DNA of 56,854 bases. It comes from Limisphaerales bacterium. GTDB taxonomy: Bacteria > Verrucomicrobiota > Verrucomicrobiia > Limisphaerales > SIBE01. The notes under the pieces were generated by a model. It was not told the DNA's origin, made no database searches, and worked only from the letters and a program-made list of their open reading frames with translations. This document shows, piece after piece, positions 34,152 to 56,854 of this stretch. Where the stretch lies: assembly GCA_044225505.1 (NCBI GenBank), contig JBGAIN010000001.1, positions 145,642-202,495 of the forward strand, read 5' to 3'. The translations under genes were made by a program, and so were the position numbers. How positions within the stretch are numbered: position 1 is the stretch's first letter; each line of letters begins with the position of its first letter.

Positions 34152-37100
34152 TTAACGAGGCAACAGTAGGAGTGAGTTTGTTGCTTCAGCTTGGCGAAGA
34201 GCACGAAGTGATGCAGTGAGTTGATGATCCTCCGTGACAAAAGTCGGGGCCGGCCAGATACGCAGCGACTCATCGCTCGCGGTGACAAGCTGAGACATGT
34301 CGGTAGACCACGCAAGTGCTCGGCACCATTCGCCAGGCGTCGACGCAGTGAGGATATGTCTGCCGGTGCGCAGGTCCCATAGATCTACTCCTTCAAACCC
34401 GGCGGCGAGTCTTGTGCCATCAGGGGACAAAGCGACGCAAGAATACGTTTCCGCCGTACCATGCAGCACAGCAAGAACCTCGGCCTTGCGAGCGTCCCAA
34501 AGCCGAATTCTTGCTCCCGCGGAATCGTAGGTAGCCAAGAGACGAGCGTCGGCCGTCACAGAAACGGAATCCACCGCTCCGTCATGTCCCAGAAAGACGC
34601 GAATCAGTCTGCCCGTGGCCAAATCAAACAACTCTGCTTTGGAGCTATAGGTTCCCGAAACCAGATAGCGATTGTCGGGCGTAAACTCGAGTGCTTTGAT
34701 CGTTAAGCCCGAGTTGGGTAGGTGATACTTGCGGGTCAAAGTAGGTGCGTCCAAAACGTCGAGAGCCCACTCTTGGTTCTCCGACCAATGCGCTACTGCC
34801 AACAAGGAGCTGTCGGGTGAAAACCGAAGCTTGTATACCGAGTTGCTAGAAAATTGAGCGGTTGCCCGAACACCGGCGGAGGTTGTATCAAGGAGCACTA
34901 ATTCACCATTAGCGCCTCCCACCGCACATTGTCTGCCATCTGGCGAGGGATCGGCAGACCTGATTTTCGTGACACCCCAAGGGAAAGCGCGTATCCGAGC
35001 AAGCGGGTTAGCGCTGTAAAGCGCGAACGTTCCGTTGGTGTGGATTGTCGTCCAATACTTTCCACCGCTGGAGAATTGCGGCGGCTGAACCAGATTGTCC
35101 TCGCCCTTGAGAAATTCAGAGCGTTCCGCTTTGAGCACGGTCTCTCGGGGCGATGGGGGATGCAGTGGCCAAAAGCGGATGGTATTGTCCCAACTTGTCG
35201 TGACGATCGCGGGCTCTGCAGGTGAAAACGCCGCGGAATGAATGCCTGCCTGGTGACCGCTCTGCGTCCCCACAGTTTGGCCAGTACTGAGTTGCCAAGT
35301 GTTCAGATCCTGGCCTGTGCTGGTAGCCAATCGATCGTGGCGGGAAGAGATCGCGAGAGGCGCTTGGTTGGTCAAGCGATAAACCTCCTTCCAGTCGGGA
35401 AGTGTCCAGACAATGGCCCCGGTCTTGCCCCAAGGATCAGAAGCCGTCGCAAACTTGCCGTCTTCGCTGAACAAAACGTTAAATATTTCTCCCTCGAACA
35501 ATCGCAGCGGAGGCAGGGCCTGAGAAATTTCCGGGTTCCAACGTGCGAGTCTTCCATCTTTCAGATCGTAAAAGAGAGTTTTGGAATCGGGAGAAAACAA
35601 AAGAGAACTGTGGAGATCGAATCCGCCCCAGGGCAAACGAGTGAGTGGCACACGATTTACTAAATCCCACACCACAAGTCCCGACCCCGGGTAATTAGCT
35701 CCAAGGCCAGCGGCGAAAAACCTCCCATCGCCTGAAAACGCCAGCGCTCGCACACGCCAGTTGGGACCATTGGTCAAAACGAAACTCTTTTGCCAAGTTC
35801 GAACGTCCCAGAAGTGAATCGTCGCGGCCATGTCCGCCCCAGCCGCCAAATAATTGCCATCCGGCGAAAACAACACCGTGTAGATCTGATTGGGACTGAC
35901 TACTTCGTTCACGGTCAGGCGTTGCGCGAGGGTTTTATTCTTCGCATCCCAGACTTTGACAGTGCCATTTAAGCCTGGAGTGGCGATCCAGTTTCCGTTC
36001 GGCGAGAGACTCATCGCGAAGGCCGTCGAATCATCCCAACGGAGGACGGCGGTGGAGTCATCGCGCGTGAGGTTGGCTAGGTAATGCCATTCCCAGCCAC
36101 GAAAATCGGTAGTTCGGTTGTCGTCGGGCGCAAGACTCATCGCGAAGGGCGTTCGCTCATCCCAGGGAAAGACGGCGGTGGATTGATCGCGCGTGACATT
36201 GGCTAGGTAATGCCACTGCCAGTCGCGCGAATCAGAAATGGGTTTTACGTCAGTACTTCCGGAGCGGCTGTCTGGGACATATTTTGGGAGAAGCGACATG
36301 GCAGAACCTCGATTACGACTTTCTGCCAGTTTTCCGGCGGCAAACATATCGGCCGCGTATTCGTTCAAGCGTGCCCGAAGAGCTGTGGCGGCCTCGCGTT
36401 TGGCCGCGGTTAGAGCGGCTTTGCGAGCGCTATTGATGCGAAGGATAGCCAGAGGCGAGGCGGTTAAAATCAGAAGCGCGAGCAGGATTAACAGGGCGTA
36501 GGAGGTGGCCAGGGCCGGGTTACGTTGAGACCAGCGGATGACGCGAGCGCTACGTGTGATGGGACGAGCAATGATCGGTCGGTTCCCGAGGTAGAGCTGC
36601 AAGTCGTCCGCAAGAGCTTGAGCCGTGGGGTAGCGTTTGCCAGGGTCTTTTTCCAGGCATTTCAGGCAAATCGTTTCCAAGTCGATGGAAATGGAAGAAT
36701 TAAGCAATCGGGGCGAGACCGCGTCGTTACTGGCCACCTGCTGCAATGTCGCGGTAAGCGATTCTCCAACAAACGGAGGACGTCCGGTTAAAAGGTGGTA
36801 GAGGACTGCCCCCAAAGAGTAGACATCGGTACGCGGATTCGCGGATCCCCGTTTCCCATGGATTTGCTCCGGCGGAATGTAATTAGGCGAGCCAAGCATC
36901 TCGCCGGTCGTCGTTAATTCGCTCTCGCCGGTCAAGTCCTTAGCCAAACCAAAGTCGGTGATATGCGGTTGATCGCGCAGATCGATCAGGATGTTGGACG
37001 GTTTGAGATCTCGATGCAAAATACCCATGCCATGGGCGTAATGAACGGCTTCTGCAATCGTGTGGACAAATCGTACCGCACGCGCGCTCGGCAGCGGCTG

Positions 37101-37553
37101 GTGCTGGGTCAACTCGGCAAGACTAGGGCCGTCGACGTAATCCATGGCGAACCAAGGCTGCCCCATGAATTCGCCAACTTCGTGAATCGCGATAATGTGG
37201 GGGTGTCGCAACCGCGCCGCGGCCACGGCCTCCGCGTGGAAGCGTTGTTTATAGGTATCGCGTGTGAACCGGCCGAACGGTAGCGTCTTAATGGCGGCGA
37301 TTCTGCCGAGGTGTCTATGCCGGGCTTTATAGACTACCCCCATCCCCCCGGCAGCAATGCATTCCAGGATATCGTAATCGCCCAAGCGCCGAGGCAGTTG
37401 GTCGCTTTGCGGAGCGGTGGATGCTTGGCCCACCGAGGGCGTAAAATCGGACTCGGCAAGTGCGGCGCTGATCAGGCAACGCTGGCACAATCCCTCGGGA
37501 GCGCCAGGGCGAATTTCCGCGCTGCAATCCCGACAACGGTGCGGACCATTCAT
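34152..37553 (-). CDS. Membrane Ser/Thr kinase with N-terminal CxxC..CxxC knuckle and C-terminal WD40 repeats (module 2)
   Basis: [48 protein letters not shown] repeats. Confidence 0.93.
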   Translation of the reverse strand: MNGPHRCRDCSAEIRPGAPEGLCQRCLISAALAESDFTPSVGQASTAPQSDQLPRRLGDYDILECIAAGGMGVVYKARHRHLGRIAAIKTLPFGRFTRDTYKQRFHAEAVAAARLRHPHIIAIHEVGEFMGQPWFAMDYVDGPSLAELTQHQPLPSARAVRFVHTIAEAVHYAHGMGILHRDLKPSNILIDLRDQPHITDFGLAKDLTGESELTTTGEMLGSPNYIPPEQIHGKRGSANPRTDVYSLGAVLYHLLTGRPPFVGESLTATLQQVASNDAVSPRLLNSSISIDLETICLKCLEKDPGKRYPTAQALADDLQLYLGNRPIIARPITRSARVIRWSQRNPALATSYALLILLALLILTASPLAILRINSARKAALTAAKREAATALRARLNEYAADMFAAGKLAESRNRGSAMSLLPKYVPDSRSGSTDVKPISDSRDWQWHYLANVTRDQSTAVFPWDERTPFAMSLAPDDNRTTDFRGWEWHYLANLTRDDSTAVLRWDDSTAFAMSLSPNGNWIATPGLNGTVKVWDAKNKTLAQRLTVNEVVSPNQIYTVLFSPDGNYLAAGADMAATIHFWDVRTWQKSFVLTNGPNWRVRALAFSGDGRFFAAGLGANYPGSGLVVWDLVNRVPLTRLPWGGFDLHSSLLFSPDSKTLFYDLKDGRLARWNPEISQALPPLRLFEGEIFNVLFSEDGKFATASDPWGKTGAIVWTLPDWKEVYRLTNQAPLAISSRHDRLATSTGQDLNTWQLSTGQTVGTQSGHQAGIHSAAFSPAEPAIVTTSWDNTIRFWPLHPPSPRETVLKAERSEFLKGEDNLVQPPQFSSGGKYWTTIHTNGTFALYSANPLARIRAFPWGVTKIRSADPSPDGRQCAVGGANGELVLLDTTSAGVRATAQFSSNSVYKLRFSPDSSLLAVAHWSENQEWALDVLDAPTLTRKYHLPNSGLTIKALEFTPDNRYLVSGTYSSKAELFDLATGRLIRVFLGHDGAVDSVSVTADARLLATYDSAGARIRLWDARKAEVLAVLHGTAETYSCVALSPDGTRLAAGFEGVDLWDLRTGRHILTASTPGEWCRALAWSTDMSQLVTASDESLRIWPAPTFVTEDHQLTASLRALRQAEATNSLLLLPR
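36001..36233 (-). repeat. In-frame 126-bp (42-aa) tandem duplication inside kinase 2
   Basis: gactcatcgcgaagg at 36008 and 36134; DSRDWQWHYLANVTRDQSTAV..FAMSLAP versus DFRGWEWHYLANLTRDDSTAV..FAMSLSP. Confidence 0.92.
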
Positions 37554-37608
37554 CTCAAGTCTTCCTCCGGCGCAATATACGTTTTTTCCGGGAACCCTAA
37601 CTTAGAAG

Positions 37609-37633
37609 AGAAGCATTTAACCTGCGAAGTAAC
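37609..37633 (-). promoter_or_regulatory. Putative ECF promoter GTTACTT-N12-GCTTCT upstream of kinase 2
   Basis: Identical boxes and spacing recur at 38770-38794. Confidence 0.65.
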
Positions 37634-37691
37634 GGGCTTTGACGATAATCTTGGCCCATTTTCCATCGCGCCAGGACCAGGCGCTCCAAAT

Positions 37692-38525
37692 TCAATCTGC
37701 TGACACCCGCAGCAAATGGCGCATTTCATCTTCGACTTCGGCGGGGTCAGCCAGCGTGCGCCTTATCTCCGCACGAATAAGTTCCCCATATCTGCGCCGC
37801 AGACGCTGCACACGCATTTTGAGCGATGCTTCTGTTACCCCTAGCCCAGTAGCGGCTTCCGCGTAGCTGCCGTTCGCCTTAGACCCAGTCAAGAAACGCT
37901 TCAAGATCTCAAACAACACCTCTTCTCCATTCGTGGTAAACTCGGCGCGAAGCCGCCCGAGGACCGACGCTAGAATCGTAGCCACCCACCGCCTTTCGTA
38001 AATCGTCTCGGGCGTTTCATCAGTGGATGGATGAAGATGGATGGCCAATTCCGATGTCAAGTCATCGAGCGACACAAAGGCGATGCGCCCGCCGCGCTTT
38101 ACAGCGCGAACATGGTCCCGTGCATTCGAGAGGAAATGCTGAATCGCAGCGAAAAGAAACGAACGAAAACGGCCTTTACGTGGATCCACTTGTGTCAAAT
38201 AACCCCCGTGGAGCAGCCGATAGAAGAACTCTTGCGTAAGATCTTCCGCCTCGCCAATGCCGTCGGCCCGCGCACGAATATAGGCATAAACCGGCGGCCA
38301 GTAAGTGCGACACAGGGCATCCAGCGCCGCCCGCGCAGGTTCACAAGTTCCGTTGGATTGGTCACTACCGGCGGCCAAGACCACACTCCAGTGCGTGGTG
38401 GCAAAAATCTGAGGTTCTTCCGAGCCTACGGTCACGCCGGTTACGTTACCGGGTTGGGCGCTTCCGAGCCAGTCAAAAGGACGACTCGAGGACGCAGCGA
38501 ACCTGTCTCTCATCGCTATTGTCAT
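37692..38525 (-). CDS. ECF sigma factor, kinase-associated (module 2); true start probably further downstream
   Basis: FATTHWSVV, YWPPVY, EAEDLTQEFF, GRFRSFL, YERRW, VQRLRRRYGELIR. Confidence 0.9.
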   Translation of the reverse strand: MTIAMRDRFAASSSRPFDWLGSAQPGNVTGVTVGSEEPQIFATTHWSVVLAAGSDQSNGTCEPARAALDALCRTYWPPVYAYIRARADGIGEAEDLTQEFFYRLLHGGYLTQVDPRKGRFRSFLFAAIQHFLSNARDHVRAVKRGGRIAFVSLDDLTSELAIHLHPSTDETPETIYERRWVATILASVLGRLRAEFTTNGEEVLFEILKRFLTGSKANGSYAEAATGLGVTEASLKMRVQRLRRRYGELIRAEIRRTLADPAEVEDEMRHLLRVSAD

Positions 38526-38769
38526 GGAGGTGGAAGACTAGGTCTTTTTCCGTCGGCGTTGCTCCCGGGGAAGATGACGGCGCGACTTCTACGGCCGCGT
38601 TTCGTTGCGATCTGGCCAGTCGCATAGACTGACTCCACTGCGACGCGTTTGGTCTGTTCGCGTTTTGATCAATTCGTCGATCGCGGGAACGCCAGACTTT
38701 ATCGCCAACGGAGATCTATTCCTTTTGGACAGTGTTTCCCGTTGTCCTGCCGTTGTGCTAAATCTCTCT

Positions 38770-38794
38770 GTTACTTTCGACAGGAACCGCTTCT
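38770..38794 (+). promoter_or_regulatory. Putative ECF promoter GTTACTT-N12-GCTTCT upstream of the S8 peptidase
   Basis: gttactt tcgacaggaacc gcttct. Confidence 0.65.
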
Positions 38795-38880
38795 TTTTAT
38801 AGCAAGACTAAGTTCCGAGGCAGGCTCGAACGCGCGTCTGACGGCAAAACATTTTATTTACGAAAATAGTCTGTCAATTC

Positions 38881-41535
38881 GTGGATATGGGGTGTCTTAG
38901 GCTGATCGCTATGCTGGAATTATTGAGTTTGGTCACCATTCACGCGAGCTCGGATTCGACTGTTCGATTGTTGGTCAAGTGCGAGGGGGGGCCATCCAGC
39001 AGGCTCGCTCGCGCGGCTGACGCGGCGGTCGGCGCCATCGCCGTGCGCCAGTTTGAAGCAATCGGCTGGCACCTGGTGCAATTGCCCGATGGCGTGAGCG
39101 TTGCTCAAGGGGTTAAAAGCTATCGAGGGCAGCCAGGTGTTCTCAACGTTGAACCCAATTATACGCCAAAGCCCCAAACTAGACTGTTGTCCGAGCCGGG
39201 CGTCGCCTTCGATCCGAACGATCTTAGCCGATCCTCAAACCATCCCCGGCCCAGTCTGCCGTCCTTGGCGCTCAACTCATCTGCGCCCACGCGCGTGGTT
39301 CCAAATGATCCGCAGTACTCATCCCAGTGGAATCTCAAGAAGATCGCGATTGAACAGGCCTGGGCCATCACCACAGGCGACACAAACGTCGTCGTGGCAG
39401 TTCTGGATTCGGGCGTAAATTACCTTCATCCCGACCTCGTCGAGAATATGTGGAAGAATCCTGGTGAGACAGGTCTGGACGCCCAAGGCCGAGACAAAGC
39501 CACCAACGACATCGATGACGACGAGAACGGTTATGTCGATGATGTCTTTGGGATCAATACGGTAGAGAATACGAGCGATCCGATGGACCTGGGCTTTACG
39601 CGTCCTGACCTTGCTGGTCCTGCCGCACACGGGACCTTTTGCGCGGGCGTTATAGCGGGCATCGGAAACAATGGGACCGGAATGACTGGAATCAACTGGC
39701 GGGCTCGCATCATGGGTTTGAGGATCATCGGTGGCAATCTGGTGCGCACATTCACCAGCAATAAATCAAGATTCCTCGAGGCGATGGAGTATATCATTCA
39801 AATGAAGCGGCACGGAATCAATGTCCGGATTGTTAGCATGAGCGATTCAGACGACATTTACAGTCAGGCATTTGTCGATTCAGTGCGAACCGCGGGGGAT
39901 GAAGGCATTCTTTGCGTGTTCTCAGCGGGGAATGAAGGCTGGAATTTGGATGCTATCCAATGGCGCTCGACCGCAGACGATTTGTTCAACCTGATCACGG
40001 TGGGTGGCAGTGATCGTTCAGACGGACTGATTTTCAACTATGGCAGCACGTCCGTGGATTTGGTTGCTCCCGCGAGGGATATCGTTACGACAGGCTTTGA
40101 AGAAACCTACGTAACCGGGTTCTATGGCACTTCGGCCGCGTGTCCTCATGTGGCAGGAGCAGCCGCTTTGCTCGCCGCCGCCATGCCTGATATTTCAGTT
40201 GCCCAATTGCGCACAGCACTGTTGGGTTCCGTAGACTTACTTCCGACCGCCAAAGGAAAGATCGTAACCGGTGGCCGATTAAATGTTCTGCGCGCGCTGC
40301 AATCTCTCACAAATTCCTCGCGCGCGCCGATTGTCATATGGAGTTCGCCGGCAGGCATGCGAGCAGACACAAACGCGCCGATTAAGGTCACCTTCAGCCA
40401 GCCCATGGACCGAGCGAGTGTAGAACAGGCTCTGATCATAAATCCCCCTGTGGAAGGGATTTTCGAATGGTCGGCGGACAACCGACAATTCACTTTTCGG
40501 CATCCAGCAGCACTGCCCCGCACGAATCACACCTGTCGCATCGCCGCGACGGCGAAAGATGCCGAAGGCCGGGCATTAGATGGGAATTTTGATCGATTGA
40601 TCCAGGGATCTCCGTCGGATGATTACCTTTGGACCTTTCGGTTTCCGTTGCCAAACGATGCTTTCGCAGGCGCTGAGCGTATTGCCGGAGAAGAAGGAAG
40701 CGTGAGTGGTAACAACAGCACGGCCATTGTCGAAGCAGGCGAAGCTCCCCCGAATGGATATGTTTTCTGGAACTACGATGCGTCTGTTTGGTATCGATGG
40801 AGAGCTCCGAGAAGCGGATGGTTCACGCTCGATCTTACAAAGGGAACGTCCTTTAACTCACTCTTGACCGTCTTTACGGGCGAAGAGTTAGTCGGATTGA
40901 CCGAAGTCGCCAGTAATATCGATTACGGCAGCCAGAACACGAGTCGACTGTCTTTTTCAGCAGCGGCTGAAACGGAATATGCAATTGCCGTCGCCGGAAC
41001 TTGGCCACAAACCGGGAAGTTCAATCTGCGTTGGTATCCCACGCCAGCACCCACAATCAGTTCGATTAGTGCTCTGAGCGGTACGGATGGCCAAGTCGTC
41101 ACTCTGCTTGGAACCAACTTGACTGGTGTGACGAATGTAGATTTCAACGGTTTGCCGTTGTCCTTTACGCATTCAACGAATCCAAACTTCGTCGATTTGA
41201 GTCTCCTTGTGACGCTACCTTCAAAATCATTTGAAAGCCCTGCGACTGGCTTATTCAAGCTGGAATCTCTTTACGGCAGCGCGGCCGCCTCGAACCAGTT
41301 CACCTTCGTGCCAGCACCAGCGCTCGCCGTGGAACCAGGACCGGATGGTGTCGTCATAATTTCGTGGCGGGATGATGCCAAAGATATGTTGCTGGAAGCC
41401 ACAGAACTGCTTGGCTCTCCGTCTGTTTGGCAGCCCGTCGTTCTTCCAGATGCAAACCCTCCCATACGGGGCCGCGTTCGCAGGGCTGCGTCTCCATTGA
41501 ACGGATCCCGTTTCTATCGGTTGCGCCGTCCATAA
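38881..41535 (+). CDS. Secreted S8 (subtilisin) peptidase with Ig-like/PPC/IPT-like domains and a C-terminal FYR domain
   Basis: Catalytic triad VAVLDSG, HGTFCAG, GTSAACPHVAG; AGN oxyanion residue; VTFSQPMDRAS (Big_5-like); PNDAFA..SVWYRW; ends SRFYRLRRP. Confidence 0.92.
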   Translation: MDMGCLRLIAMLELLSLVTIHASSDSTVRLLVKCEGGPSSRLARAADAAVGAIAVRQFEAIGWHLVQLPDGVSVAQGVKSYRGQPGVLNVEPNYTPKPQTRLLSEPGVAFDPNDLSRSSNHPRPSLPSLALNSSAPTRVVPNDPQYSSQWNLKKIAIEQAWAITTGDTNVVVAVLDSGVNYLHPDLVENMWKNPGETGLDAQGRDKATNDIDDDENGYVDDVFGINTVENTSDPMDLGFTRPDLAGPAAHGTFCAGVIAGIGNNGTGMTGINWRARIMGLRIIGGNLVRTFTSNKSRFLEAMEYIIQMKRHGINVRIVSMSDSDDIYSQAFVDSVRTAGDEGILCVFSAGNEGWNLDAIQWRSTADDLFNLITVGGSDRSDGLIFNYGSTSVDLVAPARDIVTTGFEETYVTGFYGTSAACPHVAGAAALLAAAMPDISVAQLRTALLGSVDLLPTAKGKIVTGGRLNVLRALQSLTNSSRAPIVIWSSPAGMRADTNAPIKVTFSQPMDRASVEQALIINPPVEGIFEWSADNRQFTFRHPAALPRTNHTCRIAATAKDAEGRALDGNFDRLIQGSPSDDYLWTFRFPLPNDAFAGAERIAGEEGSVSGNNSTAIVEAGEAPPNGYVFWNYDASVWYRWRAPRSGWFTLDLTKGTSFNSLLTVFTGEELVGLTEVASNIDYGSQNTSRLSFSAAAETEYAIAVAGTWPQTGKFNLRWYPTPAPTISSISALSGTDGQVVTLLGTNLTGVTNVDFNGLPLSFTHSTNPNFVDLSLLVTLPSKSFESPATGLFKLESLYGSAAASNQFTFVPAPALAVEPGPDGVVIISWRDDAKDMLLEATELLGSPSVWQPVVLPDANPPIRGRVRRAASPLNGSRFYRLRRP

Positions 41536-41810
41536 ACGGTCTGCACTCTCTAATTCTCGGAACTTAATCGTTCATCGGATACTCCTCTTCCTTGGCACGC
41601 CCGCGGGCGGTCGCATGAGCTCTTAATGACGCTGAAGAAGCACGGCTTTGGTGAATCAGTTCACCGATACTTGTTCGATTCAATCACCCTCGGAAAGATG
41701 CTCGGTTTTTGTGGCGGCTCAAGTGCTTCCCGGCTTGCTCCACTTCCTTTGCCCCATTCGTGGTTTTTCTGTCCGGTTTCACGTTCGGCGGGTGTTATAG
41801 CTCGAAAGAC

Positions 41811-42371
41811 ATGCTGGCCGACTACGAACTTTTACGACGCTACTGCACGGATCGCTCCGAGAGTGCTTTTGCCGAATTGGTTGAGCGCCACGCGGATCTC
41901 GTCTATTCCGCAGCGCTCCACCAACTCAATGGCAATCCTGATCTGGCGCGGGATGTGGCCCAGGTGGTGTTTACCGATTTGGCCCTCAAGGCAGCCTTGC
42001 TGCAGCCATCCGTGTCAGTGGCCGGATGGCTCTACACCAGCGCCCGGTTCGCGGCGGCGAAGCTCGTTCGGTCAGAACTGCGCCGACAGGCTCGTGAGCA
42101 AAACGCCCTTGCAATGGATGACCTTGATTCTGCACCTGATTTGCCAGGCGACGATGCCGCCAGACTCCGCCCGGCTATCGAAGAGGCGATGCAGGGCCTG
42201 GATGAGGCGGATCGCGAGGCGTTACTGCTGCGCTATTTTGAGAATCGAGATTTCAAGTCGGTGGGAACCGCTCTGGCTATCTCGGACGATGCGGCCCGAA
42301 AGCGAGTCGTCCGAGCTGTTGAACGAGAGACGATCCCGGTGCCACAAGGTCAATTACTTTCCAGCCGCTGA
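41811..42371 (+). pseudogene. C-terminally truncated ECF sigma factor (homolog of the 26287 fusion type)
   Basis: SESAFAELV, ARDVAQVVF, GWLY, DAARKRVVRAVER, then unrelated ETIPVPQGQLLSSR*, where the paralog continues LR..L..RG plus a long extension. Confidence 0.6.
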
Positions 42372-48800: not shown

Positions 48801-48865
48801 GCCAGGGATAGAAAAACCACCCAAAAGGCACGGACAATCCGTTGATATGGAAATTGTTTCATCAT
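45809..48865 (-). CDS. Secreted LVIVD-repeat (beta-propeller) protein with C-terminal FFR domain
   Basis: Signal peptide; many V.VSG.YAYVA.G..GL.++D+S.P..P repeats; ends GNGFFRLKSH. Confidence 0.9.
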   Translation of the reverse strand: MMKQFPYQRIVRAFWVVFLSLALWPPTHGKEFDPQFQGHWPAEHRGLARSVAVSDGYAYVAAGDLQIIDVSDPTDPRWMLGYDAGGIVQGVTVSGSLTYIAVAGYGLQILDISAPAQPRKIGGIKTSSDAMDVRLRDNRAYVAVADGLEVIEVSTPASPRSLGRYQSHGGINRVAVSDNYAYLAGVDTDIAAVEDVQVIDLADPSQLKRVGVYDSGWDVQDLAISGNYLHVASIGVGLSTLDISDPASPRLVSTYTTDMNAAGVAIFGHYGVLSSGTAGLHLLDFSNPTVPPTRISLARFQDHRSMSTVTINGNFAYVAANLDDDFLGLPLGSVLQVVDLSDPAHPRLAGEANAGHETRAVAVSGSYAFLADANAGLQVIDLSDSTQLRQVGGFRTVGHAHDVVLGGRYAYVADGESGLQIVDVAQPTNPTPAGRTDTTGFAEAVVLAGHYAYVADGEAGLQVLDVSNPFVPALVGGLDTSGYAKAIAIARDHVFIADRAESLKVINVANPRTPRLVTTLEGKPVADLVTSGNFLFAAGGPFLVYDISDPRNPKEIASYTGNVSFNGIKVSGDYAYLTGDLAIGLHIVDISNPASPSRAAFCDEVFPFFEQSRNALAVTGEHVLLADGRGGLTMIKMNPANPVRLGEYDAFTQSLAWSRNHVYLAVNGVWNGSAFVDPGMHVVDVSNPSHPQKIGAYRTKGEGVAVGVERDRAYLLEEGVVEFGQQSPMSLDAIDVSDPTNPQQISRSELRRRAQQLAIHNDRVYVWFPSGALPGEIEVINVSDPKVPQSLFVYQPNDWTHGLPASRNLVYTPDLAEGWLVTEKTSDGTGTFLGGYKTLASLQGTAVSGKYAYQAVTRGFGFETGQTQVLDISDPANPREIASYPRGGFSLVVEGHYAFVGGIGLDVFDISSPFNPRRVGRNAAPAFSTGTKQLAVVGGRGYAAGWDGKFVIFEMLPFFNSLSRKDTELHLSWEGWDRARLQRATQASNSDWQDIPSSGTSAILPAGAGNGFFRLKSH

Positions 48866-48889
48866 TCTTCGGTGCAACTCCAACTGGTT

Positions 48890-48916
48890 CCATGCAGGAA
48901 TTGCGGCAAGGTTACA
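48890..48916 (-). promoter_or_regulatory. Putative ECF promoter TGTAACC-N13-TGCATGG upstream of the LVIVD gene
   Basis: Same boxes and spacing as 52165-52191. Confidence 0.65.
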
Positions 48917-48933
48917 GACGAATGGAAAAACAA

Positions 48934-51900
48934 TTACCGAAGGGCATGCTGCTCCTGTTGCGATTCCATCGCGGCGATTTCCTCGAAGGAAGGCGCCCTG
49001 AAAAGCTTCACGCGTTCGCCCGGAAAGCTTAGATAGCCAGCGGCGAGGACCCGCCCATCCGGGGAAAAACAGAGGGAGCGAAAAATACTGCCGAGCGGAA
49101 GAGGCAGCGTAACGATTTCCTGGTCTGTGGCGAGGTTCCAGAGCCTCACTTTACCGTCGAGGCCGCCGGTCGCGAGAGTCCGCCCGTCAGGCGAGAAGGC
49201 CACACGGCGCACGCCCATAAGATGCCCTTTGAGAACTGTCCGCAATCGTCCGGAGGGAAACTCCCAAAGCCTGGCTTCGTTACCTTCCATTGTGCAAGTG
49301 GCGAGCAAACGGTCGTCTGGCGAGAACTCCGCCCAAGTCACGTAGCCGTCATGTCCGTTCAGGCGACGAAGTTCCCGTTGATTGACGATATCCCAGATGG
49401 CCGCATCGGTGCGGTTTCTGGAGGCGCAAACCATCCATTTTCCATCCGATGTAAAGTCGATAGCAGAGACAGGATTTGTCGTCGGGCGAAGCGCAATCAT
49501 TTCCGCGCCTGTGGACGTATTCCAAAAGACCAGCCTGCCATCAGCGCTGCCTGTAGCGATAGCGCTCCCATCCGGCAGAAACTTCACGAAGCTGATCTCA
49601 TTTGTTGCCGCTTTCCATGAGAAAAGCTGTGTTCCTGCGCTGAGATTCCACAGTTCGACGGAACCATCCTCGCGACCCAGGGCGCCAAGGGGTTTGTTAC
49701 CCTGAACATCGAACAACGTGTTCATCAGGTTGTCCGGAATCAGCGGTTTGGGTGAAACGGGCACCGGTCGCGTAATTCCGTCACCAAAATGCCAGCGGAA
49801 AGCCGGTGGGCCAGGGCCAAGCACAAAGGTCCTACTGTCCGCGGTAAACCCGGCAATTAGACTGCCCTCGCCGGATCCAGCCGGGGCGACCGCGTCTCGT
49901 GTGTTCCATAACTTTGTTGTGCCATCGAAACTGCCAGAGACGACCGTCTGACCGTCCGGGGAAATATCCAATGCCCAGACTTCTCGGGTATGACCACGCA
50001 AGCGAACCAGGTGTTTGCGAGTCGTGAGATCCCAGAGATTGACGGTGCGATCGGCACTCGTCGTGGCGAATACATCCCCGTGCAAAGGAACAGCAATGTT
50101 GCTCACGTGAGTGGAATGCTCGTGAAAACTTTGAATTAGTTTCGGGGGAGACTGCGTGACATCCCATACCAGCAACCGGCCATCCCACGCTCCGGTTAGA
50201 AGATGTTTGCTGTCCGGCATGAATGCGGCTGAGGACAACGGAGTTTCCACGGGGAACAAGTCCGCGTAAAGTTCCAGAGTTGGGACTTTCCACAACCGCA
50301 AACCAGAAACACCAAGTTCCATCCAGGGGGTCACTAGTAGTTTGCCGTCCGGGGAAAACGATGCGACGTGCCGAACGTGCCAATTCATACCCGGGGTGTT
50401 CGGGCATTCACCCACTGGCGACCACTTGACTGTGCTCCATACAACGAGGTTTGTGGATCGCGCTTTCCCTGTCACCATCCAATTGCCATCAGGTGAGAAC
50501 TTCACCGGCGCGACGGCCTCGGGCAGCGTCCGCGCTTCGCGCCACGTCCGAGTATCCAGGAGCTTGACTGAACTCCAATCTGCCAGCGCCAGGAGAGTGC
50601 TGTCGGGCGAGAACGATAGGTTAATCGCCCCCGGGAAATTGGTGATGATCCGATGGGAAGGCCTTTCGCGGATCACGACGTAATCCGCGGAGCAGGCGAG
50701 CAATCCGCCGTTTGGCGAAAAAGCGACCACACTGGCGGCTTCCGCTGGGAAAGTAGCCTGTTCATTTCCCTGGCAAAGTTGCCAGAGATGACGCCATTCA
50801 AAACCGCGCAAGTCCTGCTCACCTTCTTTGGGACGCTGCCGGTCGAGCATTTCCACCGCACGGGCCAGGTTGTTCTCCGCGAGGGCTTGATGGGCCACAT
50901 TGACTTCGGCGGCGTAGGCGCGACGACGAGTCGCTTCTTTGCGCGCGCGCGCGGATTGCCAAGAAGAGATCAACAGACTGAGAACGACGGCAAGAACAGC
51001 GACGCTTGAGGTCGTCACGAGCACGTTGTTTCGGCGAATGAGTTTGCGAAACCGGTAGAGTGAACTGGGCGGGCGAGCGGCAATGGGTTGGTTTGCCAGA
51101 TATCGCTTTAAGTCCGCTGCGAGTTCAGTCGCAGATTCGTAACGCCGCGCGCGATTCTTTTCGAGGGCTTTGATCGTGATCCAGTCGAGATCACCGCGAA
51201 CACTCTTGTAGAGCCGACGCGGTTCTTCTGAGCGCAGAGCCGCCACCAGAGATTGGTCCTCCAGGTGCAACGTGGATAACCGAGCCGACGGCGTCGCCGC
51301 TTCTTCTTCTCGAATGAGCTTGAGCATCGCTTCGTACCCTGCATTGCGGAGTTTTTTCGGGTCGAGCGGCGTTTGCCCAATCAGCAATTCGTAAAGAAGT
51401 ACTCCCAGCGAATAGATGTCCGTCCGTGTATCGACATCGAAACTGCCCAGGCTGGCTTGCTCAGGACTTACGTAGGCGGGTGTGCCAAGGAACTGCTGAA
51501 AGCGAGTAAAGAGCGTCTTCTCCGTTAGCGGTTCATCCAGAGCTTTGGCCACGCCGAAATCAATGACCTTCGGAGCAAACTGCCGATCCACTTCGCTTAC
51601 CAAAATGTTGCTTGGCTTGAGGTCGCGGTGAATGACCCCTTTCTGATGCGCGTGCTGCACCGCCTCGCATACCAGGATAAAAAGCTTGAGACGTTCGCGC
51701 GTGGGCAGGTGATGCGAATCGCAAAACTCTGTAATTGGCGCCCCCCGGACCCATTCCATCACGAAGAAAGGTCGTCCCGTTTCCGTCGTCCCGCCGTCAA
51801 ACACGCGAGCGATGTGGGGATGGTCCATCATGGCCAGCGCCTGCCGTTCCGCCTCAAAGCGCTTCATCACTTCGCGCGTATCCATGCCGAGCTTGATCAG

Positions 51901-52152
51901 CTTGAGGGCGACACGACGCTGCACCGGTTCCAGTTGCTCGGCCATCCAAACCGTTCCAAATGCGCCTTCGCCAATGTGTTCGATCAACCGGTAACGCCCA
52001 ATAATCGTGCCTGCTACCGGTGTGCTCGTGGGTGTTTCGCTGTCGTCCGGCTCCAAATGGCGCAAGCCAAGAGAAAGAAGGCACGCCGGGCATCGCCCGT
52101 CACGCAACGAGGAAACCGATTTGCCGCATTCGGGGCAGAGTTGCTTCGACAT
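48934..52152 (-). CDS. Membrane Ser/Thr kinase with Cys knuckle and WD40 repeats (module 3)
   Basis: [63 protein letters not shown] repeats. Confidence 0.93.
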   Translation of the reverse strand: MSKQLCPECGKSVSSLRDGRCPACLLSLGLRHLEPDDSETPTSTPVAGTIIGRYRLIEHIGEGAFGTVWMAEQLEPVQRRVALKLIKLGMDTREVMKRFEAERQALAMMDHPHIARVFDGGTTETGRPFFVMEWVRGAPITEFCDSHHLPTRERLKLFILVCEAVQHAHQKGVIHRDLKPSNILVSEVDRQFAPKVIDFGVAKALDEPLTEKTLFTRFQQFLGTPAYVSPEQASLGSFDVDTRTDIYSLGVLLYELLIGQTPLDPKKLRNAGYEAMLKLIREEEAATPSARLSTLHLEDQSLVAALRSEEPRRLYKSVRGDLDWITIKALEKNRARRYESATELAADLKRYLANQPIAARPPSSLYRFRKLIRRNNVLVTTSSVAVLAVVLSLLISSWQSARARKEATRRRAYAAEVNVAHQALAENNLARAVEMLDRQRPKEGEQDLRGFEWRHLWQLCQGNEQATFPAEAASVVAFSPNGGLLACSADYVVIRERPSHRIITNFPGAINLSFSPDSTLLALADWSSVKLLDTRTWREARTLPEAVAPVKFSPDGNWMVTGKARSTNLVVWSTVKWSPVGECPNTPGMNWHVRHVASFSPDGKLLVTPWMELGVSGLRLWKVPTLELYADLFPVETPLSSAAFMPDSKHLLTGAWDGRLLVWDVTQSPPKLIQSFHEHSTHVSNIAVPLHGDVFATTSADRTVNLWDLTTRKHLVRLRGHTREVWALDISPDGQTVVSGSFDGTTKLWNTRDAVAPAGSGEGSLIAGFTADSRTFVLGPGPPAFRWHFGDGITRPVPVSPKPLIPDNLMNTLFDVQGNKPLGALGREDGSVELWNLSAGTQLFSWKAATNEISFVKFLPDGSAIATGSADGRLVFWNTSTGAEMIALRPTTNPVSAIDFTSDGKWMVCASRNRTDAAIWDIVNQRELRRLNGHDGYVTWAEFSPDDRLLATCTMEGNEARLWEFPSGRLRTVLKGHLMGVRRVAFSPDGRTLATGGLDGKVRLWNLATDQEIVTLPLPLGSIFRSLCFSPDGRVLAAGYLSFPGERVKLFRAPSFEEIAAMESQQEQHALR

Positions 52153-52164
52153 CGTCTTTCTTTG

Positions 52165-52191
52165 CCAAGCAATTTTGGGCCAAAGGTTACA
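52165..52191 (-). promoter_or_regulatory. Putative ECF promoter TGTAACC-N13-TGCTTGG upstream of kinase 3
   Basis: tgtaacc tttggcccaaaat tgcttgg, 12 nt before ATG 52152. Confidence 0.65.
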
Positions 52192-52195
52192 ACCT

Positions 52196-52927
52196 TCAGA
52201 GGGAGACCACTCCGATCAAGTATTGTATTTCTTCGTCAATTTCCTCCGCGCTCTTGACTGTCTGCGAGACAGCCAGTCGCAGTAATTCCCCATATCGATG
52301 TCGCATCCGGTGCACCGCCACTTTCAACGCCCCTTCGGTCATCCCGCATTCGGCAGCGGTGGCTGAATAGGGCAATCCCGAGCGATCCGGTCGGAGATAT
52401 TTGATCAAATGATCGTAAAGCTCGCTCTTATTCGCGGCTGCATATTCAGCACACAACTGTTCGGTCACGTTTTCCAGTAATGTGATCGCCCATTGCCGTT
52501 CAAATGCTCTTTCAGGAGTTTCTTCGTCCCGAATCTCGAGCAAGAATCGTCTCTCGCCCGCTTCGACATCGATTGAAAGCGGTTGTTGCCCGGCACCGCG
52601 CTTCTGTGCCTGCCCCTGCCGCCATTTGTGCCTCAGGAAGTTTTCGAGACATCTCAATAGGAAAGATCGGAATTTGCCACCCTCCCGCTGCAAACCCGTC
52701 AGACTTTGACTGCTCACCAAATGCGCGAAAAAGTCCTGGGTCAAATCCTCCGCGTCGACCGCAGTAATGCCGCGGCGACGGACAAACAGGTAGAGCGGAT
52801 ACCAGTAGCTTAAATACAATCCCGCGAACGCCGAGCGATCCGAATCCTGGGCGGGGTTTGTGGCTTGAAGAATCTGGGTCCAATGCGTTGTGCTAAAGAC
52901 CGCGCAGGCATTGTTCTTGATATTCAT
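52196..52927 (-). CDS. ECF sigma factor, kinase-associated (module 3)
   Basis: FSTTHW, YWYPLY, DAEDLTQDFF, GKFRSFLL, FERQWA, KVAVHRMRHRYGELLR. Confidence 0.9.
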   Translation of the reverse strand: MNIKNNACAVFSTTHWTQILQATNPAQDSDRSAFAGLYLSYWYPLYLFVRRRGITAVDAEDLTQDFFAHLVSSQSLTGLQREGGKFRSFLLRCLENFLRHKWRQGQAQKRGAGQQPLSIDVEAGERRFLLEIRDEETPERAFERQWAITLLENVTEQLCAEYAAANKSELYDHLIKYLRPDRSGLPYSATAAECGMTEGALKVAVHRMRHRYGELLRLAVSQTVKSAEEIDEEIQYLIGVVSL

Positions 52928-53208: not shown

Positions 53209-53868
53209 TTACTGGAGCTTGAGTGCTAAAACTGCGCGTTTGAGCACTCGCCCGACCCTGCTTTTTGCCATGTAGACAGACGCCTTCGTTGTCCCAATGG
53301 CCTTTGCCGTGTCGCCAACGGACAGCCCTTGTCGGACATGCAGCTCGAACATTTGAAACTGCTTTATGCTGACCTGAGCCTTGACGTGCTCCATTGCGGT
53401 TCGCAAGACATGCTGCTCCCATTCCTCGTTCCACAACGCTTCAAATTCGTCTGACGAGGGCTCGGCCGTGCGATGCGGCGGCGGATCGGTGTGGGGCCAC
53501 TGCTCTTCGGGCAAGTCGAGAATCTCCCGTGTCTCCTGTACTGCCTTTCCAGTCTTCCGCAACGTACATTTTCGTGCTCGAAACTGATCCCCGATTCGCC
53601 AGCGTGCCTGGCCTAGCAGCCAGGACTTGAAAGACCCGCGGGTTGGATTGGTATTGAACTCTCCGATCTTACGCAGTACGCCAACGACGGTTTCCTGAAC
53701 AACATCTTGAGCTTCGGCGTCGTTTAATCCGACTTTGCGAGCGACTTTGTAGATCAGTTCCCAGTATGTCGCAAAGAATTCACGCCAAGCACTAGTGTCG
53801 TCCCAACGCTTGAGCCGCTCGAGCAGGCTCTGTCGTGTCGGATTGGAGTCTTCAGTGCGCAGCGACAT
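53209..53868 (-). CDS. ECF sigma factor, TRxSLL-type (module 4)
   Basis: PTRQSLLERL..W..F...Y..LIY, EAQDVVQE, GSFKSWL, W..EW, VYMAKSRV. Confidence 0.9.
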   Translation of the reverse strand: MSLRTEDSNPTRQSLLERLKRWDDTSAWREFFATYWELIYKVARKVGLNDAEAQDVVQETVVGVLRKIGEFNTNPTRGSFKSWLLGQARWRIGDQFRARKCTLRKTGKAVQETREILDLPEEQWPHTDPPPHRTAEPSSDEFEALWNEEWEQHVLRTAMEHVKAQVSIKQFQMFELHVRQGLSVGDTAKAIGTTKASVYMAKSRVGRVLKRAVLALKLQ

Positions 53869-53904
53869 GGTCTCAGGGGTTTTAATAAAAGCCTGCACAC
53901 GCTG

Positions 53905-53932
53905 ACCACGTTCTGACGAGGCCGAATTTAAC
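53905..53932 (-). promoter_or_regulatory. Putative autoregulatory ECF promoter GTTAAA-N10-TCAGAACGTGGT
   Basis: Mirror copy at 54032-54059 on the plus strand. Confidence 0.7.
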
Positions 53933-54031
53933 ACGATCGGGCAGGGAGCTTTCGACGAGTTCGGTGCTGGATAGGCCAATCCAATGGAAGTCCACACGAT
54001 TGCCGACCGTTCGAAATTCGGTGAACAATCC

Positions 54032-54059
54032 GTTAAAATGATCGAGTTCAGACCGTGGT
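54032..54059 (+). promoter_or_regulatory. Putative ECF promoter GTTAAA-N10-TCAGACCGTGGT upstream of the FGE-domain gene
   Basis: gttaaa atgatcgagt tcagaccgtggt. Confidence 0.7.
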
Positions 54060-54095
54060 AGGAGCGTGGATTCAACACGCTTAAAACTCACCAAA

Positions 54096-55268
54096 ATGAT
54101 AATTATCTCAGAAAGAACAGCAAATAACCTAGCCCTCGCTGCTTGCGGGTTTGCGCTTCTGCAAAGCGTCGCCTCATCCTCTGCGCAGCCCGTTATCGAA
54201 AGCATCGCCATGGTCCCCCGACTGGCCGTCACAAGCGCCTCGGCGACAGTGGATACAATCCAATACAAGACGGATCTGAATCAGACGAATTGGCTCGTCT
54301 TGACAAACCTAGCCGTGGCGCAAAGCCCCTATTGGTTTGTCGATACCGACGCAACGCGGTCCACGCAGCGATACTATCGCGTGCTGGAAGCATCTTTGCC
54401 AACGGGAATGGTTCTTATACCCACCGGGTCATTCACGATGGGTGACACGCTGGATGGTGAAACGGATGCACTCCCGACCCACACCGTTAACGTCAGTGCG
54501 TTTTACGTGGATAAAACGTTGGTGACCTATGCGCTCTGGCAGCAGGTCTACGATTGGGCGACAAGCCACGGCTATGGGTTCGACAATCCTGGAATGGGCA
54601 AAGCCCCCGACCAACCGGTGAACACCCTGAGCTGGTATGACGCCGTGAAGTGGTGCAATGCACGATCCGAGATGGAAGGGCTTTCACTCTGCTATTTTAC
54701 GACAGCGAGCCATCTGACTGTTTACCGCAGCGGACGAACCAACTTGGAGAATTCCTTCGTAAATTGGATCGCCACGGGCTACCGCCTGCCAACCGAAGCT
54801 GAATGGGAAAAGGCAGCACGCGGCGGAGCTTCTGGCCGTCGCTTCCCCTGGGGGGACGTGGACACGATCAATTGGAGCAGAGCAAACTACTCTGCTAATC
54901 CTTCCGTTTACCATTATGACGCCAGTCCCAGTGACGGTCCAAATCCTCTCTTTAATGACGGAACCGAACCGTACACGAATCCGGTTGGATATTTTTCGCC
55001 CAACGGGTACGGGTTGTATGACGCGACTGGCAACGTGGCTAACTTGTGTTGGGACGTGTACGCGGGTTATAGCAGCGGAGCCCAGACGGATCCAAGAGGA
55101 CCTTCGGCAGGAGTCGACCGAGTCGTCCGTGGTGGAACTTGGTGCTGTGGGCCGGACCGCTCGTCCGAGCAGTGCCGCTGCGCAAGACGCGACCACCTGG
55201 GTAGCGATCCCGCGAATGCTTTCGGTTACGGCCTCGGATTTCGCTGCGTTCGAGCGGCCATCCAGTAA
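54096..55268 (+). CDS. Secreted FGE-sulfatase (SUMF1 / C-type-lectin fold) domain protein with an N-terminal YYR domain
   Basis: Signal peptide; MV.IP.G.F.MG, P...+SW.DA..WCN, YRLPTEAEWEKAARGG, PNGYGLYD..GNV, RV.RGG.W, GFRCVR. Confidence 0.9.
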   Translation: MIIISERTANNLALAACGFALLQSVASSSAQPVIESIAMVPRLAVTSASATVDTIQYKTDLNQTNWLVLTNLAVAQSPYWFVDTDATRSTQRYYRVLEASLPTGMVLIPTGSFTMGDTLDGETDALPTHTVNVSAFYVDKTLVTYALWQQVYDWATSHGYGFDNPGMGKAPDQPVNTLSWYDAVKWCNARSEMEGLSLCYFTTASHLTVYRSGRTNLENSFVNWIATGYRLPTEAEWEKAARGGASGRRFPWGDVDTINWSRANYSANPSVYHYDASPSDGPNPLFNDGTEPYTNPVGYFSPNGYGLYDATGNVANLCWDVYAGYSSGAQTDPRGPSAGVDRVVRGGTWCCGPDRSSEQCRCARRDHLGSDPANAFGYGLGFRCVRAAIQ

Positions 55269-55674
55269 GTAACGGCTGACGACCTTCGACCGATCTATTA
55301 TGGCTCACAGGATTGTTCAAACGCTTACCGACGTTCGAGACAACTTGACTCAGCCCGGCGGCCAGTATCGTGCTGCCCGGTTCCACCGACAACAAATCCT
55401 CTGATACCCCAACGAATTGGGCTTGGCTTTTTTGAACGGCTTGGCTGGCCGGGACCTTTTCACTGGCAAAGTCGTCGATTTGGCACTACCCATCATAACT
55501 ATCGATCGGCAATTTAATTCTCCGGGCGTGCCTCGGGGGATTTGCCGAGTCAGATTAATTAACTGCGGATGTCAACCGAGGCGGTAGGGCAGCATTGGTC
55601 TCCTCAAACAGACTAGTCAATAGGCTATAATAGGTCGGTCGCATATTTGCTACGGGAGTGTCTTCCTTGCCACG

Positions 55675-56853
55675 CTAGCGAGGGATCTCGTCCATCAACC
55701 CAAACCGTTGCATGATAGCAATGAATCGCGGATCTGTGTGTCTCCAGCATAAATCGCACATTGGTCCTCCGTCAAAGTTGCCCTGCTCACAGGCCTTTTC
55801 GAGGTATTCATAGGCCTTGTCCATTTCTCCAAGAGTCGCGTATACGGTGGAAATCTTGTAGAGATCTGGCGAAGGCTCCTTCAGCACATGTTCAAGGCGC
55901 TTTCGCCAATACGCCTCGCGTCCGGCGCGCGCGGCTTGGCGCAGCTCCCCGTAGCGCGTTTTGCGAATGCCTTCATCCACCCTGTCCAGCCGATCAAACT
56001 CTTCAAACGACTGAAGCGCTTTTTCAAATTCTCCCATTTCCTCGTAGGTCCGCCCTATCCAGTAGAGGCCATTGAGATGGCCCGGCGCTAGTTCGAGCGA
56101 TTTTCGATAGTGAATCAGGGCTTCGCTAAAGTTTCGCCGCATCAGGAATGTGAAAGCGAGGTGATCGTGAAAGAAAGGGTCAGAAGGCAACAATCGTTCA
56201 CCAGCACGATATTCCAGCTCAGCTCGCTCCGGATAACCCAGGTTTGTCAGGAAAAATCCGTAGGCAAGATGTGCGTAGGCGGCTCCTTCTCGTGAATCTG
56301 CTCTCAGCTCGGTAGAAAGTTTCGCTTCCGCCAGCGCTTCTCGGAATTTGAAATCGCGCCACTTGACCAGGGCCAAAGCGCCGCGTGATTCGGCCCGCGA
56401 CGGGGACAGACTCATCATTTTTGCGGCAGTCGCGCGTAAACTCGGAGGTCCTTCCAATTGGACTTGGGTCCGGAATAGTCCAAAGTAGGCCGGGAGAAAG
56501 GTGTCATCGATATCAATGGCTAGCTTGAAGTAATCCGAAGCCTGGCGATAACGTTCTCGCGGACCATTCAGGATCACGTAATTACCCTGGTCCACCAACT
56601 CGTTGACTCTCGATATTTTGGACTCGGCGTAGCCAATGACACGGGACCGTCCGAAACCCAGGGCAACTAGCGCGGCCACCGTTATTAAAGGAGCGATTTT
56701 CTTACCTAAACTCCAGAACTGCTGGCGCGAGTGTTTCTTTCTAACAGATCTTCCAGCCTCCAAAACGCGCAGGTCGTCGACCAGCGCCACTGCTTCCAAA
56801 TAGCGCTGGCTCGGATCGTGCGCGCATGCTTTAGCGATAATCTCATTGAGCTC
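55675..56853 (-). CDS. 3' part of a Ser/Thr kinase with TM segment and TPR repeats (5' end outside the window)
   Basis: The frame stays open to the window edge: ELNEIIAKACAHDPSQRY...DDL (kinase C-lobe end), TM LITVAALVALG, TPR-like helices, terminal DPRF..+..R.GL. Confidence 0.82.
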   Translation of the reverse strand, partial: ELNEIIAKACAHDPSQRYLEAVALVDDLRVLEAGRSVRKKHSRQQFWSLGKKIAPLITVAALVALGFGRSRVIGYAESKISRVNELVDQGNYVILNGPRERYRQASDYFKLAIDIDDTFLPAYFGLFRTQVQLEGPPSLRATAAKMMSLSPSRAESRGALALVKWRDFKFREALAEAKLSTELRADSREGAAYAHLAYGFFLTNLGYPERAELEYRAGERLLPSDPFFHDHLAFTFLMRRNFSEALIHYRKSLELAPGHLNGLYWIGRTYEEMGEFEKALQSFEEFDRLDRVDEGIRKTRYGELRQAARAGREAYWRKRLEHVLKEPSPDLYKISTVYATLGEMDKAYEYLEKACEQGNFDGGPMCDLCWRHTDPRFIAIMQRFGLMDEIPR

Positions 56854-56854
56854 C

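Follow-up and report, generated by a model that had tools for sequence, protein, structure and literature searches.

Predicted promoters, a residue-to-base code and a candidate zinc-ribbon tether in kinase-linked ECF sigma modules of a Limisphaerales bacterium

In the canonical pairing of a sigma factor of the extracytoplasmic function (ECF) class with a membrane anti-sigma factor, such as RseA or the zinc-binding ZAS anti-sigmas, the partner holds the sigma factor and the sigma factor transcribes its partner. Here we analyze a stretch of 56,854 nucleotides (nt) from a Limisphaerales bacterium (Verrucomicrobiota; assembly GCA_044225505.1, contig JBGAIN010000001.1, positions 145,642 to 202,495), hereafter the window, in which ECF sigma genes lie near genes for transmembrane (TM) Ser/Thr kinases and exported proteins. 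The closest described group is ECF62 (Casas-Pastor et al. 2021, PMC7826278), which is listed as 100% Planctomycetes and has no anti-sigma gene but a kinase gene at position +1, whose product carries one TM helix, a WD40 domain and an N-terminal zinc finger; in the group's description the promoter motif is called 'not conserved' and the zinc finger is given no role. The ECF43 pairs EcfP-PknT and EcfK-PknS lack the DAED motif and, in the accounts of PMC8999054, PMC8103513 and PMC13147305, are switched on by phosphorylation there. The first of these, a 2022 review, suggests in its treatment of kinase-linked groups that those keeping DAED may act through some as yet undiscovered mechanism. Covariation between residues of sigma regions 2 and 4 and promoter bases was described by Todor et al. 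2020 (10.1101/2020.06.23.168245), in whose account the motif search covered DNA upstream of the sigma gene, its operon or the divergent gene.

Sigma-kinase pairing and a general ECF code are thus already known. The modules studied here, whose sigma factors we call the F family, resemble ECF62 in having a kinase gene at +1 and kinases with one TM helix, a WD40 domain and an N-terminal zinc finger (the TM helix and WD40 domain in the kinases of units A and B and of a fourth unit of the window), a likeness by description. They differ from ECF62 in being mostly verrucomicrobial, in numbering 38 copies in one genome and in having a clear promoter after the sigma gene. As in the ECF43 pairs, an ECF sigma adjoins a membrane Hanks kinase and there is no anti-sigma gene; unlike the ECF43 pairs, the F sigmas keep DAED, and the ECF43-type sigmas of this genome form a separate set. 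The logic proposed below resembles that of canonical anti-sigma pairs, in that a membrane partner would hold the sigma factor and the sigma factor would transcribe that partner, but the partner is a Ser/Thr kinase whose catalytic motifs appear intact, its metal site is a CxxC...CxxC ribbon and not a ZAS motif, and the sigma gene lies mostly outside the loop. Relative to the code of Todor et al., the covariation is of the same kind, but it separates paralogs within one genome and reaches upstream of the -10 core. The literature searched (outside it lay Iyer 2020, the planctomycete surveys of 2012 and 2020, and bioRxiv supplements) yielded the classification paper, reviews, the ECF code paper and the ECF43 work; in it we found nothing on a promoter of ECF62 type, on its placement behind the sigma gene, on dialects among paralogs or on any function of the ribbon.

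The genome (9.04 Mb in 342 contigs, a splitting that may hide some gene linkage) holds 133 sigma-like open reading frames (ORFs) and 74 kinase ORFs. The F family accounts for 38 of these sigmas, including those of units A and B and of the fourth unit, while the sigma of unit C falls in a six-member family, P. The F profile aligns with M. tuberculosis SigE across sigma2 and sigma4 (E 2e-5), and the best Foldseek matches for the family are ECF sigmas, but with E values above 0.001. Single sigma proteins score slightly below the TIGR02937 cut-off, sigma C excepted; Pfam finds sigma region 2 in all four window sigmas named in the preliminary description. F sigmas are present in 17 of 21 genomes searched (the source genome counted), which going by record titles are chiefly Verrucomicrobiota. 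In the phylum to which a Planctomycetota record (G161) belongs, 56 of 121 genomes have them. Records titled Bifidobacteriaceae, Bifidobacterium and Akkermansia (L137, L139, L144, L147, L163, L164, L199) also carry these modules; their titles look doubtful. Among 262 family sigmas, the kinase gene lies at +1 in 173, at -1 in 22 and elsewhere in the locus in 22; for the rest, the contig ends (29) or there is none (16).

We applied Gibbs sampling to the 38 spacers between F sigma and kinase genes, trimmed upstream of the first cysteine because earlier sampling had recovered only zinc-ribbon codons. This returned the motif tGTAAC(tt)...wTTC...GwA with a score of 505, compared with 426-444 for shuffled spacers, which had fewer restarts than the real run. 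The family promoter is laid out as tGTAAC, 17 nt, and an extended -10 box that ends near GTA. An unusually long promoter spacer was considered and rejected, since alignment to sigmaE-type residues, using what we take to be the sigmaE numbering, gives the usual AAC-N17 spacing. In leave-one-out scoring, sites of at least 10 bits precede 6 of 15 neighbouring genes that encode a domain ending in the residues FYR (the FYR domain) and 139 of 5823 other genes, and none of 37 F sigma genes has one upstream. The preliminary description had proposed a motif search in homologous modules: in held-out relatives the family matrix found sites in 63 of 111 kinase spacers, compared with 7 of 187 regions upstream of sigma genes. 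Where the kinase gene lies upstream of the sigma gene, the site still precedes the kinase (19/20), and at one locus (L211), where an insertion element splits sigma from kinase, the promoter site remains with the kinase. The signal is weaker in the second phylum, with a site in 6 of 18 loci that have a kinase or ribbon and in none of 29 regions before sigma genes. We therefore rejected autoregulation of the F sigmas, given the counts before sigma genes in this genome, its relatives and the second phylum (0/37, 7/187 and 0/29). Searches upstream of the sigma gene exclude the sigma-kinase spacer, which explains why an ECF62-type promoter was missed earlier.

In the window, a bipartite motif had been reported twice in each of units A, B and C, and all six copies are present with the reported spacing and in the same sense as the gene downstream. 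Motif A (GTTACTT-N12-GCTTCT) lies at 38770 (+) and 37633 (-), motif B (TGTAACC-N13-TGCWTGG) at 52191 (-) and 48916 (-), and motif C (GTTAAA-N16-CGTGGT) at 54032 (+) and 53932 (-). The idea that these are three different motifs holds in part: C belongs to a different family, but A and B are dialects of the one F-family promoter. Exact copies in the whole genome number three for A, two for B and two for C. With other spacers of 5-30 nt, A and B each give one match in total; motif C gives 0-3 matches at each other spacer length, so by count alone it is not above background. The third exact copy of motif A (G000 C167:9975, +) sits between two divergent genes, some 110 nt ahead of one of them, and is outside the top 12 predicted sites for sigma A; it may be a chance match or a remote target. 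In the region 37000-56854, sigma70-type promoters and terminators were no more numerous than in shuffled sequence.

Unit A reads from sigma A (37692..38435, -; EAED intact; start uncertain, ORF open to 38525) through the kinase promoter GTTACTT...GCTTCT (37606..37637, -), which lies between the sigma stop and the kinase start, to the receptor kinase (34152..37553, -), which has the N-terminal CxxC...CxxC zinc ribbon, a Hanks kinase domain, one TM segment and WD40 propellers. On the other strand, the cargo promoter (38766..38797, +; 14.5 bits leave-one-out) shares the dialect of the kinase promoter and precedes an S8 peptidase gene (38887..41535, +; start approximate) encoding Ig-like/PPC domains and a C-terminal FYR domain. 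In unit B, sigma B (52196..52927, -; 243 amino acids like its closest relatives; DAED intact) is followed by the kinase promoter TGTAACC...TGCTTGG (52163..52194, -), which ends 11 nt before the ATG of the kinase gene (48934..52152, -; zinc ribbon, one TM segment, WD40). Directly past the kinase stop lies the cargo promoter TGTAACC...TGCATGG (48888..48919, -), whose boxes match at 15 of 18 positions, the top value among about 6000 upstream regions, and then the gene for an LVIVD-repeat propeller protein (45809..48865, -). Pfam bore out the gene identities first proposed (kinase with WD40 in units A and B, S8, LVIVD, FGE and TPR), and in each of the kinases of units A and B and of the fourth unit there is a single hydrophobic segment, with the catalytic motifs intact. 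Although stated to be adjacent, units A and B are separated by a truncated extra sigma gene (about 41.7-42.4 kb) and an M16 peptidase gene.

The motif copies could instead be relics of local duplication or the sites of another regulator, and this explanation can draw on the background frequency of motif C and on column-permuted matrices, which still yield 8-17 genes with a site of at least 17 bits, compared with the 60 (15 of them kinases) observed. Three observations speak against it. The first concerns 17 held-out within-module pairs of sites, picked by the family matrix alone, in which boxes agree at 0.71 compared with 0.51 expected (0/100000 permutations) and spacers agree at 0.35 compared with 0.35; common boxes without common spacers favour selection and disfavour duplication. 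The second is that the -10 box and the kinase ATG lie close together, at least about 5-7 nt and in most cases less than 40 nt apart (123 sites). The third is that the promoter bases track the DNA-contact residues of the adjacent sigma across genomes, as described next. We consider this explanation very improbable and conclude with high confidence, from sequence comparison, that the motifs are cognate ECF promoters of the adjacent sigmas. As the preliminary description had proposed, they behave as such promoters with one dialect per sigma, and the predicted feedback would act on the kinase gene in the F family, or on the sigma gene itself in the family of unit C, as well as on a neighbouring exported-protein gene.

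Within modules, the kinase site agrees better with sites of its own neighbours than with those of other modules (12.25 compared with 10.83 of 18 positions; 0/200000 permutations), with a strong neighbour match (at least 13) in only 10 of 20 modules. To relate these dialects to the sigma factors we used 98 sigmas (104 before those more than 80% identical were dropped). Mutual information peaks at one loop residue, where Ala, Val or Leu goes with A, T or G in the promoter (z 32), followed by residues of the region 2.4 helix (z 28, 22 and 12) and by residues of the region 4.2 helix that covary with the -35 box (z 15 and 14). Most residue-base pairs survive permutation within sequence clusters, 84->26 weakly so. 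Under the same assumed sigmaE numbering, an alignment to AlgU puts the code positions where, according to 10.1101/534826, loop and helix contact the -10 box. On 48 new metagenome sites (drawn from 79 sigmas, of which 52 had a usable spacer), the code clearly outperformed the majority base at five positions (40/45 correct compared with 20, 30/46 with 12, 30/46 with 19, 43/45 with 31 and 34/40 with 24). When the code was trained on 124 sites outside this genome and applied to 22 kinase sites of this genome (leave-one-out score of at least 5), the cognate sigma ranked first among 38 for 14 sites, second for seven and 21st for one. In the window, sigma A ranked first for both its kinase and its cargo promoter, sigma B second for its kinase and third for its cargo promoter, and the fourth sigma first. 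By these sequence statistics, the F sigmas recognize variants of a single bipartite promoter, each sigma its own, and a few sigma residues in the specificity loop, the region 2.4 helix and the region 4.2 helix set that variant.

These dialects bear on the strong form of the original proposal, namely that each unit is a strictly insulated cassette of one sigma, one kinase and one dedicated cargo. Besides the better agreement among a module's own sites, this proposal is favoured by 35 distinct predicted promoter words across the 38 sigmas, by a 7.5-bit margin in the assignment of both A sites to sigma A, and by the enrichment of FYR genes among module neighbours (14/49, compared with 270/6439 of genes). 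Against it, only 7 of the 22 kinase promoters have no other sigma within 3 bits, and of 45 non-kinase predicted targets, 15 with FYR (background 4%), just 11 are found no more than 15 kb from the sigma that matches them best. The dialect of sigma B is common to sigmas on contigs C310, C337 and C191, and B-like sigmas in relatives (L212, L215, L216) have identical boxes and different cargos. In relatives, a second site precedes 12 of 57 genes downstream of the kinase, 2 of 52 divergent genes and none of 45 co-directional genes upstream. Strict insulation thus lacks support as a general rule, and we regard it as improbable. The rivals, unlinked targets and differing cargos lead us to picture the unit as a loop of sigma and kinase whose regulon of exported proteins is small and swappable, with channels that would be largely, not fully, separate; unit A looks the most private, and unit B appears to share its dialect. 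Two pairs of F modules are near-identical in code residues and promoters (G000 C306:1117-1860 with C222:135101-135889, and C186 with C122); as recent duplicates, the members of each pair are expected to cross-talk.

We then considered how the kinase might control the sigma factor. The last residue of the DAED-like motif is D or E in 98 of 98 sigmas, the commonest forms being DAQD (35), DAED (19) and EAED (7). The uncharged, phosphorylatable motif that replaces DAED in ECF43 was not found in the F sigmas, and because the DAED-like motif is kept, activation of the ECF43 (EcfP) type does not apply. No shared motif was found upstream of the ECF43-type sigmas of this genome (271 compared with 266 shuffled, 15 regions). 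The kinase zinc ribbon has four invariant cysteines in 82 alignment rows and is present in 27 of 29 F-adjacent kinases, spread over three kinase clades, and in none of 12 kinases beside ECF43-type sigmas. In this quick tree of 61 of the 74 kinase ORFs (domains below 200 residues dropped), the kinase B domain falls in a clade otherwise found beside ECF43-type sigmas, yet kinase B has the ribbon. The ribbon thus appears to track the F sigma and not the kinase lineage.

A complex model of sigma A with the first 335 residues of its kinase had a score of 0.64, compared with 0.00 for the best control; 116 of 157 solved and 2 of 215 mismatched pairs reach the mark for this score, a calibration only roughly valid with the alignments used here. 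Contact agreement between runs was at least 46% and partner pLDDT at least 66. In the confident interface, ribbon residues 7-35 contact the helices of region 4 together with the family's additional C-terminal helix, with the kinase active site outside. In 193 sigma/ribbon pairs, 8 of the top 20 covarying position pairs fall in this interface, compared with 2.1 expected, a count that is not independent of the alignments used for the model. The modelling suggests that the kinase ribbon probably binds the sigma factor, and we lean, with less assurance, towards binding that inhibits it. Sigma region 4 is described, in the structural account available, as wrapping the flap-tip helix of RNA polymerase in a hydrophobic groove. 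Judged by sigma70 residues, the modelled ribbon site is presumably this groove, which is the reason we prefer an anti-sigma-like tether with negative feedback, itself an even call, to docking for activation.

The module would then work as follows. The family promoter stands before the kinase gene and, in some modules, also before a neighbouring or distant gene for an exported protein. The cytoplasmic ribbon of the kinase would dock on region 4 of the sigma and on its additional C-terminal helix and, like an anti-sigma factor, would keep the sigma factor at the membrane and off RNA polymerase. A signal sensed by the outer WD40 propeller would switch the kinase on; the kinase would phosphorylate itself or conserved Thr/Ser residues of the sigma factor, releasing it, and the freed sigma would produce more kinase, a negative feedback, together with cargo. 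Taken as a whole, we judge this ribbon-tether explanation about as likely to be right as wrong.

Several observations weigh against it. At the level of the promoter, 48 of the 111 kinase spacers in relatives score below 10 bits, an unbiased pick with the family matrix did not include the cargo site of unit B, and the relatives are not independent samples, so that the permutation probabilities overstate. As for the code, the pair 35->23 proved spurious under within-cluster permutation, and there was little or no gain over the majority base for 84->26 (31/43 compared with 31), 193->8 (40/40 compared with 39) and 79->30 (21/46 compared with 18). As for the ribbon, the presumed identity of the modelled site with the flap-tip pocket was drawn from sigma70 residues and one paper, and the predictor may place any amphipathic helix in that hydrophobic groove. 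Finally, Thr/Ser is conserved in 98-99% of the 98 sigmas in three columns and in 80-93% in five more, which fits activating phosphorylation equally well.

This last point belongs to an explanation with the same promoters and docking but the opposite sign, in which the ribbon recruits an intrinsically inactive sigma factor and the kinase activates it by phosphorylation outside DAED, giving positive feedback. The candidate phosphosites are an N-terminal TTHWS motif, Thr/Ser residues of the linker and the Thr of a C-terminal QTV. The intact catalytic motifs of the kinases are in keeping with activation, as is the precedent of EcfP and EcfK, both activated by kinases, with phosphosites of EcfK reported in a loop region outside DAED. 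Set against this, DAED is intact with no obvious block to core binding, the kinase active site lies outside the confident part of the modelled interface, and the sigma gene mostly lacks a promoter of its own, as would suit a constant supply of sigma kept restrained. We therefore view activation as possible but rather unlikely, and retain the inhibitory tether as the preferred account.

Unit C appears to be a parallel family in which the sigma drives itself and a divergent cargo. Sigma C (53209..53868, -; 6 matches in the genome for its P family) is preceded by an apparent autoregulatory promoter, GTTAAA-N16-CGTGGT (53905..53932, -; 18.5 bits, with its own site in the training set). The divergent cargo promoter (54032..54059, +) has weaker support (below 11 bits with the P-family matrix) and precedes a gene for an FGE-sulfatase-domain protein with an N-terminal FYR domain (54096..55268, +). 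P-family sigmas share their own autoregulatory motif (560 compared with 453 shuffled, 35 regions), and a divergent second copy occurs in 8 of 25 regions (3.6% in shuffles), with -10 agreement of 0.83 compared with 0.45. The closest relative (L292) has nearly identical boxes before the sigma gene and a similar back-to-back pair; a divergent copy is also seen on contig C80. At L327 (G114:C462), several copies of the same P-family promoter, on both strands, are crowded into roughly 1.5 kb of DNA upstream of a single sigma. At the DAED position the P family mostly has EAQD or EAQE.

The unit C kinase that had been claimed is seen in part: a convergent gene (55675..56854, -) encodes a kinase tail with TPRs, but the kinase domain is lost because the contig (C222) ends at the end of the window, and no segment of the tail exceeds the hydropathy cut. 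A layout of kinase, convergent cargo and divergent sigma recurs on contigs C80 and C22 and in 5 of 20 loci (L322, L325, L329, L331, L333), and a kinase lies within about 8 kb, at varied positions, in 11 of 20 P-family loci. It is on this recurrence that we link sigma C to the TPR gene, whose membership of the module is plausible. ECF59 and ECF217 have a kinase at +1, which in subgroup ECF59s2 carries one TM helix and TPRs; in unit C a TPR kinase tail is present, but convergent and truncated.

The fourth pair had been described as leading into a pilin-like gene and a GH43 gene. Sigma (2890..3609, +) and kinase (3695..6911, +) are indeed separated by a strong family site at 3648..3679 (+; 20.3 bits leave-one-out), which the preliminary description had not noticed, but no matching site precedes the pilin-like or GH43 gene. 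This kinase, one of the two exceptions to the presence of the ribbon, has an apparent frameshift in the ribbon that corresponds to a 26-nt gap in the window at 3762 relative to 4 of 4 sequencing runs (one study, possibly of the source sample). The 26 extra bases of the runs make the ribbon whole and restore the frame, and we therefore rejected the view that the gene is a pseudogene. Single-base differences from the same runs occur at 4278 and 5291; together with the gap, these are likely an assembly error or a strain difference. Two further ECF sigmas lie in the window. One (26287-28320, +) continues into a TM segment and repeats of carboxypeptidase-regulatory-like type and resembles the description of ECF57. 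The other (41709-42371, +), the extra sigma between units A and B, which the preliminary description does not mention, is of the same C-terminal-extension type, ends directly after region 4 and is probably truncated.

The FYR domain, said to be common to the three cargos, was detected by a hidden Markov model (HMM) at the C-terminus of the S8 peptidase (E 2.6e-5) and at the N-terminus of the FGE protein (6.4e-8). In the LVIVD protein the HMM gave no match at 1e-3, and an FYR-like tail was seen by eye only. The domain spans 70-80 residues, is unnamed and ends in FYR; it occurs in 279 ORFs genome-wide, at the C-terminus in 241, and in the window these include 24086-25618 and 19175-21058. Our Pfam and NCBIfam scans gave it no name, nothing on it was found in the literature searched, and its Atlas matches are unnamed verrucomicrobial clusters (0.87-0.90). 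It may serve to sort or anchor proteins in Verrucomicrobiota. Ahead of the LTD/Ig/FYR gene at 19175-21058 stands an F-family promoter (19100-19131, +; 17.6 bits); the gene is likely a remote target, its best-matching sigma being on contig C28.

These results supply a promoter for a kinase-linked ECF62-like group, together with the reason why upstream searches missed it. The per-sigma code predicts targets from protein sequence, and the predicted placement of the ribbon on sigma region 4 offers a concrete interface to mutate. The modules amount to a library, provided by nature, of sigma-promoter pairs that are near-orthogonal and connected to receptor kinases, and they link orphan WD40 sensors of uncultured Verrucomicrobiota to candidate outputs. 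More tentatively, and with somewhat less than even confidence, we suggest that bacteria of the Planctomycetes-Verrucomicrobia-Chlamydiae (PVC) group may hold a multiplexed array of receptor Ser/Thr kinases that also act as membrane anti-sigma factors, in which a portable, flap-tip-mimicking ribbon, placed on at least three kinase clades, would retain an ECF sigma until its kinase is triggered and dozens of paralogous, code-separated sigmas would re-induce their own receptor along with swappable exported proteins.

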